Positions 2,831 to 63,592 of a stretch of DNA of 64,000 nt are shown here, piece after piece. How positions within the stretch are numbered: position 1 is the first letter of the stretch; every line of letters begins with the position of its first letter. The translations under genes were made by a program, and so were the position numbers. Under the pieces are notes generated by a model. The model saw only the letters and a program-made list of their open reading frames with translations, was not told the DNA's origin and did not search any database. Location of the stretch: positions 120,672-184,671 of IMG/VR virus record IMGVR_UViG_3300028805_000046, one strand, 5' to 3'. Origin of the DNA: a virus (taxonomy: Duplodnaviria > Caudoviricetes).

Positions 2831-4300
2831 ATGGCTGAACCACAGAAACAACAGAAAACAAAGACAGTAACTGGCAGAAAGAAGAATGCATTTGTCGCCA
2901 ATGATTTTGCCAAGAATCTTGGTACTTGCGCTGCCATTCGTGCTACATTCAATTTAGGAAATTTCGTTGGAAAGGGAAATTCCGCAAAGGAACTTGCTGC
3001 AAATACGAAAATTCCTAACATGGAAGACGTTTATGAAATTGCTTGTGTAAATTTGCCTGAAGAAGCTTGGAAAGGCAAATCTGTTGATGCTATTTTCAGT
3101 TATCTTGCAGCAAAGAAGGTATTGAACGTTTATAAGGAAGCAGAGAAAAAAGTAGTCACTCAGAAAGGTGAAGAAATCACTGATGAAGCAGTTCTTAAAA
3201 ACCCAGCTGTAATGAAAGACAGTAGCGGAAAGGCTTACTATCAAAAATTTAAGCGTGAAATGTTTGCTGAATTTGAATCTGGCATTGATGCAGCACGTAC
3301 TGAACTTATGCAGGGCAAGCCTATTACAGATCCTTACACCAAAGAAAAAGTTGACGCATCTAAAGCATCAAAGATTCTTAATGGCGTTGGAAAGGCTGTA
3401 AATGCTGCTGGTTCACAGATTGGCTATATTCTTGGTTTAGACAAGTCAAATAAAGACATCTATTCAAAGATGCTGTTTTCAGTAATTGGTGGTGGTTCTA
3501 AACTTTGGGCTGCTGCAAAGAAGGCCGCTGCAACTGCAAAAGCAAAGAATCAGGAGCAAGGCAAAGAAAAGCCTGATGAAACAAAGCCTGAAGAACCGAA
3601 GAAAGAAATACCTGCGGAAGAACCGAAGAAAGAACCTGAAGGACAGGCAAACAATCCTGAGGGTGAAGAAGCACAGAAACCACAGCAGAAAGCAAATCCT
3701 GAACATCAGAAAATGGCTAATGAAATCAAAGATGATATTAGTGCATTAGCAGACAATCCAAACCCAGGTAGTTTGAAGACATTAGCTGGTAAAATCAAAA
3801 AATTTATAGCTACAAGTGGCAAAAAAGAAAATGTAAAAGCAACAATTCCACAATATAGAAATGCAGTTAAAGCATTACATGTAGAATCATTCACGGGTAA
3901 GTCTAAGTCTGAAACCTATTTTGAGATGATACTTGCTGAAGATATGATTGACATGCTTGAAGATGAACAACCATCGCAAGCTACGCAGCAACAGCAGCCG
4001 TCAGTCAAATCGGAAATTGCTGCACTTATAAATAAAATTAAAGAACTTGTTTTGATTAAAGACGATAATGAATTCAAGACAGAGTACGATAGATGGATAA
4101 AATCAGCAAAAGCATTGGTTGATAAAGCCATAAAAGACAAAGAACTTAAAAAGAAACTGATAAATGAAACAAATCCATTAGATGCTCTTTGTCAGCTACC
4201 TGGATATATTCAACAGCAGAAACTTAATGCTAGTTTTGATGCAGAAATTGCAGATGTCGCTAACAAGTTCTTGAACATGCTTCGCGAAAAGTATAAGTAA
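2831..4300 (+). CDS. Hypothetical protein with E/P/K-rich linker, possibly an internal head protein
   Basis: 489-aa ORF with GAGG RBS, followed by a terminator. Confidence 0.6.
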   Translation: MAEPQKQQKTKTVTGRKKNAFVANDFAKNLGTCAAIRATFNLGNFVGKGNSAKELAANTKIPNMEDVYEIACVNLPEEAWKGKSVDAIFSYLAAKKVLNVYKEAEKKVVTQKGEEITDEAVLKNPAVMKDSSGKAYYQKFKREMFAEFESGIDAARTELMQGKPITDPYTKEKVDASKASKILNGVGKAVNAAGSQIGYILGLDKSNKDIYSKMLFSVIGGGSKLWAAAKKAAATAKAKNQEQGKEKPDETKPEEPKKEIPAEEPKKEPEGQANNPEGEEAQKPQQKANPEHQKMANEIKDDISALADNPNPGSLKTLAGKIKKFIATSGKKENVKATIPQYRNAVKALHVESFTGKSKSETYFEMILAEDMIDMLEDEQPSQATQQQQPSVKSEIAALINKIKELVLIKDDNEFKTEYDRWIKSAKALVDKAIKDKELKKKLINETNPLDALCQLPGYIQQQKLNASFDAEIADVANKFLNMLREKYK

Positions 4301-54712: not shown

Positions 54713-55402
54713 ATGAAGAGGTGCAATGAAAATTGGAAATGTCCGTACTGTAAAGATTTATTTCCTAGAAAAATAGATCTTATAGAACATAAAAGAGTCT
54801 GTGAAAAAGGTCCGAAAGTTCATATTCAATACGTAATCTTAGATGGAAAAAGAAAATATGCTCCTGGATGTAAAGCTTGGAATGCTGGACGAACCGGTGA
54901 AGACGATGTAAGATTAAAAGCAGCGGCAGAAAAATTAAAGAAAAGGTATGAAACGGAAGAATTGATGCCAGCTTATTTAGGTAAGAAGCATTCAGAAGAG
55001 ACTAAGAAAAGAATCTCTGAAAGTAGAAAACATTATTTAGCTGAACATCCAGAAAAAGTACCTTATGTATTGAATCACCATTCTAAAGGAGATAGCTATC
55101 CAGAGCAATACTTCAAAACGGTGTTCGAGAATAATAGGATCACTTACGAACAGAATTACAAAATACTCGGATATTATCTTGATTTTGCTTGGCCTGATAA
55201 AAAGACTTATTTAGAAATTGATGGAGAACAACATTATTTAGATAAAAGAATATTAGAACATGACATTCTTAGAACTGAAAGATTAAAGTCTGATGGATGG
55301 AAATGCCTAGATAGAATTAGATGGAGTAAATATAAGAAGCTTTCTAAAGAAAAGCAAGAGAAATTCGTTTTAGACTTAGTTTCAAAGATCAACAATCTTT
55401 AA
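54713..55402 (+). CDS. Zn-finger/NUMOD3/DUF559 (Vsr-like) putative homing endonuclease 1
   Basis: CPYC..H...C; HSEETKKRISES; LDFAW..EIDGEQH..D..R..L..GW. Confidence 0.8.
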   Translation: MKRCNENWKCPYCKDLFPRKIDLIEHKRVCEKGPKVHIQYVILDGKRKYAPGCKAWNAGRTGEDDVRLKAAAEKLKKRYETEELMPAYLGKKHSEETKKRISESRKHYLAEHPEKVPYVLNHHSKGDSYPEQYFKTVFENNRITYEQNYKILGYYLDFAWPDKKTYLEIDGEQHYLDKRILEHDILRTERLKSDGWKCLDRIRWSKYKKLSKEKQEKFVLDLVSKINNL

Positions 55403-55415
55403 CTATTGACATTAC

Positions 55416-55495
55416 ACGCTGGTAACCGGTTCGGACTTCTAATCCGTTATCCGTAACTGGAGTTGAAAATGCGGGTTCGATCCCCGCCCAGCGTA
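55416..55495 (+). tRNA. Atypical tRNA-Arg(TCT)-like RNA, D-armless with long variable region
   Basis: ACGCTGG/CCAGCGT acceptor, CGGA-CTTCTAA-TCCG, canonical T arm, CTA trailer. Confidence 0.65.
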
Positions 55496-57505: not shown

Positions 57506-57879
57506 GGGGACCCTCCGCCAATGGCGAGTAAGACAAAGATGATACGACAAGCCGAAAGTAGTTGCATTGGTTGCTCTTTGTAGCTGCGATCTTGGTCCTT
57601 CCTAATGAAAGTCCCATATAAAGGAGTAAGTAGAACCGTGAATGGCTAGCTCTTAGCTAGAGCAGATAGGATCGGAACTCGCTGAAACGACAGAAGTCTC
57701 GAAGTTGCAAGTAGAAGACTGGGTAGCTCCCATAATCGGGCTGAAGTTACTTCTTGATGGAAGGATGGATAAGGAGAGGCGGTGCATCACACGAGTTGAG
57801 GTAAGCTCTCAATAGATAGGTGCATGGAACTAATAACGCAGGTGAAGTTCCTGTGGAGGTTCAACTCCTCCGGTCCCCA
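57506..57879 (+). ncRNA. 374-nt RNA with tRNA-like ends (tmRNA-like architecture)
   Basis: GGGGACC/GGTCCCC acceptor, GGAGG-TTCAACT-CCTCC T arm, A73 and CTA trailer. Confidence 0.6.
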
Positions 57880-57973
57880 CTAAATTGACAGTTATCAACA
57901 ATCTATCAACTGTATCAACTGTTTCTGTTTACAAAAGTTTACAGAAAAAATTGAAAAAATTTGAAAAAATTGG

Positions 57974-58010
57974 TTGACGGATTGGAAACTAATTGTTATA
58001 TTTACTACGT
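57974..58010 (+). promoter_or_regulatory. Early promoter, copy 7
   Basis: TTGACG-N17-TATATT..CTACGT. Confidence 0.8.
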
Positions 58011-58085
58011 TGAAATTGATTGCTCGATCTCAACAAGAAAAATTGAAAATTTTTGAAAAAAATGAAAAAATTTCAATTTTTACCC

Positions 58086-58125
58086 TTGACAAAATCAAAA
58101 TAATTTTTTATATTTGATACGTCAA
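58086..58125 (+). promoter_or_regulatory. TTGACA-N17-TATATT promoter; duplicate of the 56458 region
   Basis: Consensus elements, inverted repeat and shared downstream GCCTC.CTCG.GAAG. Confidence 0.7.
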
Positions 58126-58230
58126 AATAAAATGCCTCTCTCGCGAAGATTGGCAGAAAATTGAAAAAATGGCAGTTTTTGAAAAGTTCTTGTAATAAAT
58201 AGAACATATTGATTACAAGATCAATTCCAT

Positions 58231-58263
58231 GCCCCAGTGGCGCAATTGGTAGCGCAGCGGACT
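58231..58263 (+). tRNA. 5' half (positions 1-33) of an interrupted tRNA
   Basis: GCCCCAG TG GCGC AATTGGTA GCGC A GCGGA CT; pairs with 59003-59042. Confidence 0.88.
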
Positions 58264-58266
58264 GAA

Positions 58267-58274
58267 TATAAATA
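58267..58274 (+). promoter_or_regulatory. Late promoter TATAAATA at the 5' end of the tRNA insert
   Basis: Exact consensus 4 nt before ATG 58279. Confidence 0.75.
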
Positions 58275-58278
58275 CAAT

Positions 58279-58932
58279 ATGGAAACGTCTTGTATTTGTA
58301 AATTCTGTGGCAGAACTTGTAAAAATCCAAATGCTCACCGAAATCATGAGCGACTTTGTCCTGAAAATCCAGATAGAGTTTATGTCAATCACATGAAAGG
58401 CAAAGAACCCTGGAATAAAGGAAAAAACAAAGAAACAAATGATATTCTGAGAATTAAAGGAGAAAGACTAAGTGAACGCTACAGAAATGGCGAAATAATT
58501 CCTTCATGGAAGGACAAAAAACATTCTGCGAAGACGAAATCTAAAATTTTTGAATCAATGAAGTTAGCACATTCTGAAGGCAGAGCCTATAACATAGGGC
58601 AATGCCGTTGGAATAATGAACATAGTTGGCCAGAAAAATGGTTGATAAAAGTTCTAGCTGATGAATTTGATCTTAGAGAAAATGAAGATTACAAAACTGA
58701 ATTTTCCTTTGGTAGATTTTCTTTAGATTTTGCTTGGCCGACCAAGAAACTGTGCATAGAAGTTGATGGGAAGCAACATCAAACAGACAATACTCAAAAA
58801 CTGAGAGATGCTGCAAAAGATAAGCTTCTAACAGAAAACGGCTGGAAAGAACTTAGGATTCCTTGGCAAGAATGCTATAAAAATCCAAAAGAATGGATTG
58901 AAATTGTCCGTAAATTCCTAATGGGAGTATAA
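58279..58932 (+). CDS. Zn-finger/NUMOD3/DUF559 putative homing endonuclease 2, inside the split tRNA
   Basis: CKFC..HERLC; PWNKG; HSAKTKSKI; LDFAWP..IEVDGKQH..D..KD..L..GW..LRI.W. Confidence 0.82.
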   Translation: METSCICKFCGRTCKNPNAHRNHERLCPENPDRVYVNHMKGKEPWNKGKNKETNDILRIKGERLSERYRNGEIIPSWKDKKHSAKTKSKIFESMKLAHSEGRAYNIGQCRWNNEHSWPEKWLIKVLADEFDLRENEDYKTEFSFGRFSLDFAWPTKKLCIEVDGKQHQTDNTQKLRDAAKDKLLTENGWKELRIPWQECYKNPKEWIEIVRKFLMGV

Positions 58933-58995
58933 TACAATTGGCTAGTATAGGCGACTCTTAATCGTCGAATCCGAGTTCGAGTCTCGGTACTCCCA
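58923..58995 (+). tRNA. tRNA-Lys(CTT), nested in the insert and overlapping the endonuclease stop codon
   Basis: GGGAGTA/TACTCCC; GGCGA-CTCTTAA-TCGTC; canonical T arm. Confidence 0.88.
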
Positions 58996-59002
58996 TAAAA
59001 GC

Positions 59003-59042
59003 CATAATCCGTGGGTTGAAGGTTCGAGTCCTTCCTGGGGCA
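59003..59042 (+). tRNA. 3' half (positions 34-73) of the interrupted tRNA (CAT if joined after U33)
   Basis: CAT AA TCCGT GGGTT GAAGG TTCGAGT CCTTC CTGGGGC A followed by CTA. Confidence 0.88.
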
Positions 59043-59197
59043 CTAACGGCTTACAATAGAAACTATCAAAAAGGTCTTCAGGATAAGACGCTGTCAATCG
59101 TGGCAGAAAAATCAGTTCGAGTCTGGTTGAGATAGGGACAACGATAGGCAAGTCCTAGAACAGACTTTTCTAGAGGGTTTAAGTACAGGGCGAATAA

Positions 59198-59272
59198 CGG
59201 GCTGTAGCTCAGTCTGGCTAGAGCGCTTGATTTGGGATCAAGAGGTCGTCGGTTCGAATCCGACTAGCCCGA
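59198..59272 (+). tRNA. tRNA-Pro(TGG)
   Basis: CTTGA-TTTGGGA-TCAAG. Confidence 0.9.
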
Positions 59273-59455
59273 TACTGTTCAAAAATAGCAGTAATCTGAA
59301 AACGATTGATTTTGGCTTGATGCGCAGAGCAGGAATTGGTTGCAAGTATGGTTACGGCACAGGCGAGCACTTCAGTGGATTGTTTCAATACGATTTGGTG
59401 AAGAACAGCGAATGGTGCAGGTTGCGGGGTCGCTGCACTGAGAACAGTTTCTTAT

Positions 59456-59542: not shown

Positions 59543-59680
59543 CTAATGGTCAATGACTGTCCAATGACGGTAGTTGGACCGGACGCTAAAACGGACGGAC
59601 ACGGTGGTTCAAGTCCACCCGGGAATTGACAAGTCCACGAAAAGCTAACTGCAGGTAGTTGAGTAAGGGGCGAAACTTAT

Positions 59681-61689: not shown

Positions 61690-61796
61690 AAGATGCAAAC
61701 AGCAGATCTGAACGCTGGAGTAGCTCAATAGGCTAGAGCACGGGATTTCCCGAGATGCTGGTTCGAGACCGGCCGTCAGTCCAATGGAGCATCTTG
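61690..61796 (+). ncRNA. AAGATGC/CAGCA/GCATCTTG element, copy 2, enclosing an anticodon-less tRNA mimic
   Basis: Compensatory change in the terminal stem; internal D arm, 4-nt-loop anticodon-like arm and T arm. Confidence 0.65.
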
Positions 61797-62962: not shown

Positions 62963-63592
62963 ATGAAAATACATTTTAAATGGCCGTGTCCTTATTGTAC
63001 TGATGTTTTTGATTCTAAAGGACTAAAATATAAACATTTACATGAAGTTCATAAAATTAAATGTGGACAACAGCCAAAACGTTCATTAACATGTAAATTT
63101 TGTGGACATACGGTAATTACTACATTGTGCGGTATGCGTTTACATGAACGCAGATGTAAGAAAAATCCTAATCCTGCACCTTATAATGGTCACTCAGTTT
63201 CTGCTGAACAAAAACAAATTTTACGTGAACGCGCTTTAGAAGGATATAGATCAGGCAGATGGCATGGATGGATGAACTGCCATTCGAGCAAGAAAAGCTA
63301 TCCGGAAGAATTCTTCACAAAAGTAATAGAAAATGAGTTTAATGATAAAGATTATGAATACAATTATCAGTTCTTTCAATATAGATTAGATTTTGCTTGG
63401 GTTAAAAAGAAACGTTGCATAGAAATTGACGGTGCTCAACATCAACGAAATGAACAACAAGCTGAATCAGATCTCAGGAAAGATTCAAAACTTATTGAAA
63501 ATGGTTGGCAAGTTTTAAGAATAAAATGGAAAGAAATGTATGCAGAGCCAAAAAGATGGATTTCTATAGCTAGTAATTTCATCGGAGAATAA
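62963..63592 (+). CDS. Zn-finger/DUF559 putative homing endonuclease 3
   Basis: CPYC..H...H, CKFC..HERRC; SYPE; LDFAW..IEIDGAQH..D..KD..L..GW..LRI.W. Confidence 0.82.
   Translation: MKIHFKWPCPYCTDVFDSKGLKYKHLHEVHKIKCGQQPKRSLTCKFCGHTVITTLCGMRLHERRCKKNPNPAPYNGHSVSAEQKQILRERALEGYRSGRWHGWMNCHSSKKSYPEEFFTKVIENEFNDKDYEYNYQFFQYRLDFAWVKKKRCIEIDGAQHQRNEQQAESDLRKDSKLIENGWQVLRIKWKEMYAEPKRWISIASNFIGE

Follow-up and report, generated by a model that had tools for sequence, protein, structure and literature searches.

A putative homing cassette that splits a tRNA-Lys(CTT) gene in a T4-like jumbo phage and carries a tRNA-Lys(CTT) of its own

In the tRNA array of a metagenomic phage genome, a gene for tRNA-Lys(CTT) is interrupted in its anticodon loop by a 739-nt insert that holds a homing-endonuclease gene and a second, intact tRNA-Lys(CTT) gene. 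The DNA analysed here (the window) is the last 64 kb of the 184,671-bp IMG/VR virus record IMGVR_UViG_3300028805_000046, which is ~54% complete. The phage is T4-like, with a gp6-like baseplate protein, over-represented TATAAATA boxes and numerous mobile endonuclease genes, and its tRNA array occupies 54.5-62.9 kb of the window with 33 tRNA genes. The insert is best read as a free-standing homing cassette of the EDxHD type in a T4-like jumbo phage, equipped with a replacement tRNA and devoid of any splicing element; we put the probability of this reading at about 0.85. With less assurance, but still on the favourable side, we propose that it represents an undescribed class of mobile element in jumbo-phage tRNA arrays, a kind of 'spliceless intron' that covers at least two tRNA identities, bears a same-isoacceptor tRNA fused to its open reading frame (ORF), by which it would escape counter-selection, and keeps the halves of the broken gene as homology arms.

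The split gene and its insert

The 33 nt at 58231-58263 and the 40 nt at 59003-59042 combine into a canonical 73-nt cloverleaf, which ARAGORN labels tRNA-Met(cat). Between them, the insert (58264-59002) comprises a TATAAATA box, a 217-aa ORF and the nested tRNA-Lys(CTT) (Table 1). ORF and nested tRNA together account for all but 22 nt of it (15 + 7), and they overlap: the initial 10 nt of the tRNA supply the ORF with its final two codons and its stop. The split cloverleaf, the contents of the insert, the 22-nt count and the 10-nt overlap had all been given in a preliminary description of this DNA, and each was reproduced from the sequence. The same description saw neither a bulge-helix-bulge motif nor a target duplication, and both observations stand: the ends of the insert pair no better than chance (-6.4 kcal/mol vs -6.9 +/- 2.4 for shuffles), and no target duplication was found at the insert.

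Table 1. Features of the cassette, its surroundings and its paralogues in the window
Feature	Coordinates	Strand	Evidence and remarks
5' half of resident tRNA-Lys(CTT), positions 1-33; putative left homology arm	58231..58263	+	33/33 identity to uninterrupted gene
T4-late-promoter-like box TATAAATA, 4 nt ahead of ATG	58267..58274	+	
Predicted homing-endonuclease gene, 217 aa: CCHC zinc finger, NUMOD-like linker, Vsr-like domain	58279..58932 (ATG to stop)	+	
Nested intact tRNA-Lys(CTT), putative replacement copy	58923..58995	+	Rfam tRNA 60.2 bits, E = 3.8e-12; ARAGORN
7-nt spacer between nested tRNA and 3' half, right cassette end	58996..59002	+	
3' half, positions 34-73, with CTA trailer; putative right homology arm	59003..59045	+	39/40 identity to intact gene
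Two sigma-70-like promoters upstream of split gene	57974-58002, 58086-58114	+	10/12 and 11/12 consensus; 17-nt spacers
Paralogous endonuclease gene, 30% identical, directly after tRNA-Lys(TTT)	54713..55402	+	E = 2e-24; Pfam DUF559 + NUMOD3
Paralogous endonuclease gene, 35% identical, after tRNA-Ser(GCT), near record end	62963..63592	+	E = 1e-32; DUF559 39.5 bits; DNA match

The identity of the split gene follows from its uninterrupted copies. The exact 35-nt stretch from 59008 onward is present in three other viral contigs, and an exact search with the 3' half identified the uninterrupted gene, in viral contigs L008, L009 and L010, as tRNA-Lys(CTT). With a 22-nt word of the 5' half, uninterrupted copies were found in ~30 viral and metagenome contigs, and the exact allele of the window occurs uninterrupted in at least 8 distinct flank contexts. 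A distant blastn search against GenBank phages returned tRNA-Pro matches only. The two halves in the window differ from the uninterrupted gene by a single mismatch, located at the anticodon, where the window has A at 59004 and the intact gene has T35 (CAT vs CTT). Given such near-identity to an uninterrupted gene in many contigs, the pairing of the halves is evidently not a chance match. On the sequences compared, the mismatch fits equally well an insertion after position 33 with a change of T35 to A, or the loss of C34 and T35. Because the uninterrupted gene reads CTT, the CAT anticodon is to be regarded as an incidental product of the junction. A genuine CAT tRNA (Met or Ile2) is ruled out, since all uninterrupted copies read CTT. 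Removal of the insert yields CAT, GAT or GAA and never restores CTT; the preliminary description had offered these three as candidate anticodons, and none is the identity of the gene. The cassette thus appears to destroy a tRNA-Lys(CTT) and to bring its own.

The 184.7-kb record has no tRNA-Lys(CTT) gene other than the nested one. In a comparison of seven cassettes, 9 of the 21 pairs of the nested tRNA have changed on both sides and 99.3% of cells remain paired, a value that 0 of 500 shuffles reach; because of these compensatory changes, the nested tRNA is probably functional. In one relative (L012:3642-3714) the fused tRNA-Lys(CTT) is chimeric, with the usual nested acceptor stem and with D, anticodon and T arms equal to those of the split allele of another relative (L017), which suggests recombination among Lys-CTT alleles.

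Related cassettes and evidence for mobility

A search with the ORF returned 85 homologues at E <= 1e-10, many of them on contigs of 250-465 kb, and the genomic contexts of eleven were examined. In the Lys relatives, the 5' half persists as a sequence broken at one and the same point, and the 3' half passes through stages of decay from point changes to absence (Table 2). The upstream 33 nt of L004 and L019 resemble Lys 5' halves with p = 0.0002-0.003. The junction lies after tRNA position 33 in every cassette compared. The ORF ends 8-10 nt inside tRNA-Lys(CTT) in the window and in L004, L011, L017, L019 and L022, and overlaps the nested tRNA by 22 nt in L012-L016 and by ~6 nt in L092/L093. The spacer between the nested tRNA and the 3' half measures 8 nt in L011 and 10 nt in L022, with sequences different from that of the window.

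Table 2. Lys-type relatives of the cassette
Contig	Endonuclease identity	5' half	3' half
L011	83% (amino acids)	same 33 nt	changed at 34, 38 and 41; one anticodon-stem pair broken
L022	72%	same 33 nt	begins only in variable region (cut back to T arm)
L012-L016	73%	same 33 nt	absent; tRNA-Gly gene after nested tRNA
L017	65%	different tRNA-Lys allele, broken at same point	truncated
L092/L093	~51% (homologue search)	third Lys type	none apparent
L004, L019	56-59%, longer N terminus	33 nt, Lys-like, D stem impossible	none

The arrangement extends to a second tRNA identity. In L020 and L021, a tRNA is interrupted after position 33 by a cassette whose endonuclease is 63% identical and whose ORF extends into a tRNA-Asn(GTT); the interrupted target has an uninterrupted form in L042, and this too is a tRNA-Asn(GTT). 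In L094 and L095, the endonuclease family is again paired with tRNA-Asn(GTT). To judge from these sequences, the rule that a cassette carries the isoacceptor it breaks holds for Lys-CTT and Asn-GTT alike. The homing cassette with a tRNA on board, one of two options in the preliminary description, is thereby supported and sharpened: the destroyed and the carried genes specify the same isoacceptor, and the break recurs at position 33, also in Asn(GTT).

Two comparisons bear on movement. An occupied site (L022) and an empty site (L008) have flanks that are 94-99% identical. Furthermore, the endonuclease genes of the window and L011 have diverged to dS = 0.63 (dN/dS = 0.14), whereas their tRNA arms agree exactly over 65 nt and have changed only within 8 nt of the right junction. 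Neutral remnants of one old insertion would have drifted far more, so the arms must have been either renewed or selected. The pattern fits renewal of the arms from conserved recipient genes at each homing event. Such renewal would be expected from homing, because the distal part of an arm would come from the functionally constrained gene of the recipient and the sequence next to the cassette would travel with it. The preliminary description had taken the undecayed halves as a sign of either splicing or recent insertion; splicing does not hold, and the state of the halves would be explained instead by repeated homing into a highly conserved gene.

Two further observations concern the fate of the halves. 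The ~260-kb contigs L020 and L021 agree at 3,667 of the 3,672 nt compared; of the five mismatches, four fall at 1474-1480, within 7 nt of the 5' half. These four turn the 5' half of the split tRNA-Asn(GTT) into the L042 allele, beside an identical endonuclease cassette; the cluster resembles a short tract of gene conversion with an intact allele of the L042 type as donor. In the spacers between tRNA genes of the window, orphan hairpins resembling T arms, with GGTTCGAGTCC-type loops, occur at 59105-59140, 59595-59625 and 61725-61755, and also in L008 and L010. They could be the 3'-half remains of older cassette invasions, or processing signals.

The endonuclease, its expression and a route of homing

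The ORF product matches Pfam DUF559 (36.2 bits; cut-off 20.6) and MTES_1575 (38.0 bits), both Vsr-like, and a GIY-YIG domain gave no match in the ORF. For an AlphaFold2 model built from 31 homologues (mean pLDDT 86.6), the best match in the PDB by Foldseek was the catalytic domain of I-Bth0305I (3R3P; E = 9e-4, TM 0.82-0.83 by target, ~100 columns), followed by the DUF559 protein 3HRL and then by Vsr; a sequence search of the PDB gave a weak DUF559 match alone (3HRL, E = 0.09). The model predicts a Vsr-like homing-endonuclease fold of the EDxHD type. Residues C7, C10, H23, E119, D150, E161, D163, H167 and D177 are invariant in the 31 homologues, and C27 is nearly so. The spacing of 17 between D150 and H167 equals that between D196 and H213 of I-Bth0305I (PMC3239194), and we infer a residue-by-residue catalytic equivalence to that enzyme. 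The N-terminal region contains a CCHC zinc finger, to which C7, C10, H23 and C27 belong, and the model places long helices at 55-112. Of the zinc finger, NUMOD3 and DUF559 modules named in the preliminary description, the first and last were recovered; NUMOD3 is weak in the window copy (E = 0.44) and reaches E = 6e-4 in the paralogue at 54713. An exact-protein look-up of the window ORF returned no identical entry. With dN/dS of 0.12-0.32, the endonuclease is under purifying selection.

Members of the EDxHD family carry N-terminal DNA-binding modules and make cuts that adjoin their insertion sites and leave two-base overhangs (PMC3239194; PMC2677866); I-Bth0305I likewise cuts beside its own insertion site with 2-base overhangs (PMC3239194). 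They occur within group I introns of phages, inside 'fractured genes' split by inteins, and also as inserts that stand alone (PMC3239194; PMC2677866), and the phage genes that Vsr-like homing endonucleases fracture in some cases hold neither an intein nor an intron (PMC2677866). The cassette enzyme could be a dimer that reads the inverted repeat of the anticodon stem in DNA, in which case compensatory stem changes in the nested tRNA would alter both half-sites together. The window also contains two paralogous endonuclease genes (Table 1). Directly after the first of these, at 55416-55495, lies a tRNA-like gene with the anticodon TCT, for which ARAGORN makes no call: its acceptor, anticodon and T arms are normal, a D arm is lacking and the variable region is long.

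The box ahead of the endonuclease gene has 9 copies in the window vs 2.0 expected. It also stands 4 nt ahead of the ATG in the L011, L012, L017, L020/L021, L023/L024 and L025/L026 cassettes; in the L022 cassette the box reads AATAAATA, at the same distance. More broadly, TATAAATA followed by 4 nt and ATG, without a Shine-Dalgarno sequence, is found in nearly all short-form genes of the family, as well as in the HNH gene of the L008 intron described below. Ordinary late genes of the window (starts 6550, 12682 and 18006) have a gap of 20-30 nt between box and start; because the gap here is only 4 nt, the putative promoter suggests a near-leaderless late mRNA. The two sigma-70-like promoters, 120-260 nt upstream of the split gene and recognized by consensus matches alone, probably drive read-through transcription of this part of the array. 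Another sigma-70-like match, TTGTCC-18 nt-TATAAT (10/12), lies at 58904-58933, and its -10 box coincides with the initial bases of the nested tRNA; the match probably arose by chance from the conserved sequence at the ORF end and tRNA start. Processing of the nested tRNA by RNase P would remove the stop codon from the endonuclease mRNA, and equivalent processing has been proposed as a brake on expression for T4 segB and tRNA-Arg (PMC2330249).

These features can be assembled into a route of homing. The enzyme would be made from its own TATAAATA box or by read-through of the array. During mixed infection, it would cleave a related phage's uninterrupted tRNA-Lys(CTT) gene within or beside the anticodon loop, and the break would be repaired from the cassette-bearing genome, with the two tRNA halves and any flanking homology serving as arms. 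The recipient would lose its own tRNA-Lys(CTT) and gain the nested one, so the cost would be small. Fusion of the ORF end to the tRNA would make endonuclease and replacement inseparable by recombination. After fixation, the halves would decay; the window copy, with arms intact save at the anticodon, appears to be young or still active.

Alternatives, known systems and implications

Among other explanations, a one-off illegitimate rearrangement fares best, although we consider it improbable. A SegB-like gene with some other target would have come to lie in the tRNA by accident and been inherited vertically. Free-standing endonuclease genes are indeed common in phage tRNA clusters (PMC2330249, PMC13096335), and the two paralogues in the window lie outside recognisable split tRNAs. 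However, the break at 33/34 recurs in at least three different tRNA genes (two alleles of Lys-CTT, and Asn-GTT), each with a same-isoacceptor tRNA aboard; moreover, arms and ORF do not co-diverge, and occupied and empty sites occur in near-identical flanks.

The second option of the preliminary description was a protein-dependent 'Russian-doll' intron. Spelled out, RNase P and RNase Z would free the nested tRNA, the pieces would be trimmed and a phage ligase would join the halves. Both halves are intact in the window, and the record encodes an Rnl1-type RNA ligase outside the window (L091; G000:C1:7789-8397; PF09511 72.8 bits, 408-aa open frame). Rnl1, however, is standard equipment of T4-like phages, and neither RtcB nor Rnl2 was found in the 184.7-kb record; the ligase search proposed at the outset, which recovered one of the enzyme types sought, does not discriminate. 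None of the possible joins recovers CTT, the anticodon of the uninterrupted gene. Relatives have kept endonuclease and nested tRNA intact, but their 3' half is broken (L011), truncated (L022) or absent (L012-L016). Release of the nested tRNA would also leave ~660 nt of ORF RNA on the 5' half, with no known cut at position 33, and the insert ends do not pair. We regard this scheme as very unlikely.

A conventional group I or group II intron, with a ribozyme core overlapping the ORF, has still less in its favour. The anticodon loop is the classic site of group I introns in bacterial tRNA genes, and related phages do possess them. Nevertheless, an Rfam search of 57800-59400 returned neither a group I nor a group II model at E <= 10, and the same search detected group I introns in L008 (30.9 bits) and L068 (74.7 bits). 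The ORF and the covarying tRNA leave just 22 nt of the insert unoccupied, and the would-be 3' exon is lost in relatives. The absence of a ribozyme core, as first described, is thus borne out, and we give such an intron hardly any weight. The two introns are of interest in their own right. In L008 (1024-1740, minus strand), a tRNA-Leu(TAA), intact in the syntenic L009:386-470, is split in its anticodon loop by a ~650-bp insert consisting of TATAAATA, 4 nt, an HNH ORF and a group I core (Intron_gpI 30.9 bits, E = 7e-6, full model length). In L068 (600-960, minus strand), a tRNA-Lys(TTT) contains an ORF-less group I intron after the anticodon that scores 74.7 bits, above the gathering score; the D arm and anticodon stem of this tRNA are the same as those of the split gene in the window. 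Finally, a chimera of reads from two tRNA loci, conceivable for a metagenome assembly, is effectively excluded by recurrence of the same architecture, in diverged sequence, in independent ENA, Logan, JGI and NCBI assemblies (L011, L012-L016 and L022).

Several points nonetheless weigh against a homing cassette with a replacement tRNA. No relative, empty or filled, with the window's own junction or flank was found. Four lineages retain a perfect 5' half, L012 among them even though its 3' half is lost, and the 5' half may be selected for some other role. We infer the target of the enzyme only from the position of the insertion. With the record ~54% complete, a second Lys-CTT gene could lie elsewhere in the genome. 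The nested tRNA, presumed immune to the enzyme, and the target share an identical 7-nt anticodon loop, and the nested anticodon stem of L012 is close to that of the L017 target.

The nearest known parallel is SegB of T4, which homes the tRNA region and whose ORF ends at a tRNA processing site (PMC2330249). Like the cassette, segB is an endonuclease gene embedded in a phage tRNA array (PMC2330249; PMC13096335). SegB cleaves the tRNA genes of related phages and takes adjacent tRNA genes with it, as the cassette would. In both, the ORF ends at the 5' end of the next tRNA, an arrangement proposed for SegB to limit expression. The two differ in nuclease fold (GIY-YIG in SegB, Vsr-like EDxHD in the cassette) and in position: SegB recognizes the T arm and is intergenic, whereas the cassette interrupts a tRNA gene within its anticodon loop. 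Unlike SegB, the cassette keeps both halves as putative arms and carries the isoacceptor that it destroys. With I-Bth0305I and other EDxHD enzymes, the cassette shares the catalytic fold, conserved residues, the order of a putative N-terminal DNA-binding region and a C-terminal nuclease, and carriage by phages. These enzymes likewise split genes and can stand alone without intron or intein (PMC3239194; PMC2677866). Their known targets, however, are protein genes, which regain function through a group I intron, split inteins or the two protein pieces; the cassette interrupts a tRNA gene, and a spare gene copy would make up for the loss.

Group I introns of tRNA genes, as in cyanobacterial tRNA-Leu(UAA) and in tRNA-fMet with I-Ssp6803I (cited in PMC2677866) or in L008 and L068, resemble the cassette in their anticodon-loop site, the endonuclease aboard and the retention of both exon halves. 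By contrast, the cassette has no ribozyme core and no splicing, and the replacement tRNA would cover the cost. The boundary pairing of archaeal bulge-helix-bulge tRNA introns and split tRNAs is not seen in the cassette, and the 3' halves are truncated in relatives. Fungal mitochondrial endonuclease ORFs of the Allomyces atp6 type bring a functional substitute for the displaced part of their target and leave a remnant behind. There, the target is a protein gene and the displaced end alone is replaced in frame, whereas the cassette would replace a whole RNA gene. Full-text literature searches turned up papers on SegB, on the association of endonucleases with tRNAs and on EDxHD enzymes, but no description of an endonuclease-split tRNA gene with a spare tRNA. 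Free-standing homing endonucleases and intronless homing are already known, and the tRNA-replacing design belongs with them as a variant.

To our knowledge, homing endonucleases have been thought to persist inside conserved genes only by means of self-splicing introns or inteins, or else between genes. The cassette would represent a third solution, suited to RNA genes, in which the target is destroyed and its replacement delivered in one package. It would show how an endonuclease and a tRNA become one inseparable unit, and the enzymes would be natural nucleases against the DNA of tRNA anticodon arms. For large phage tRNA arrays, such cassettes would explain part of the turnover, the duplication and the stray tRNA fragments, and would allow phage tRNA alleles to be exchanged between array contexts that are otherwise unrelated.

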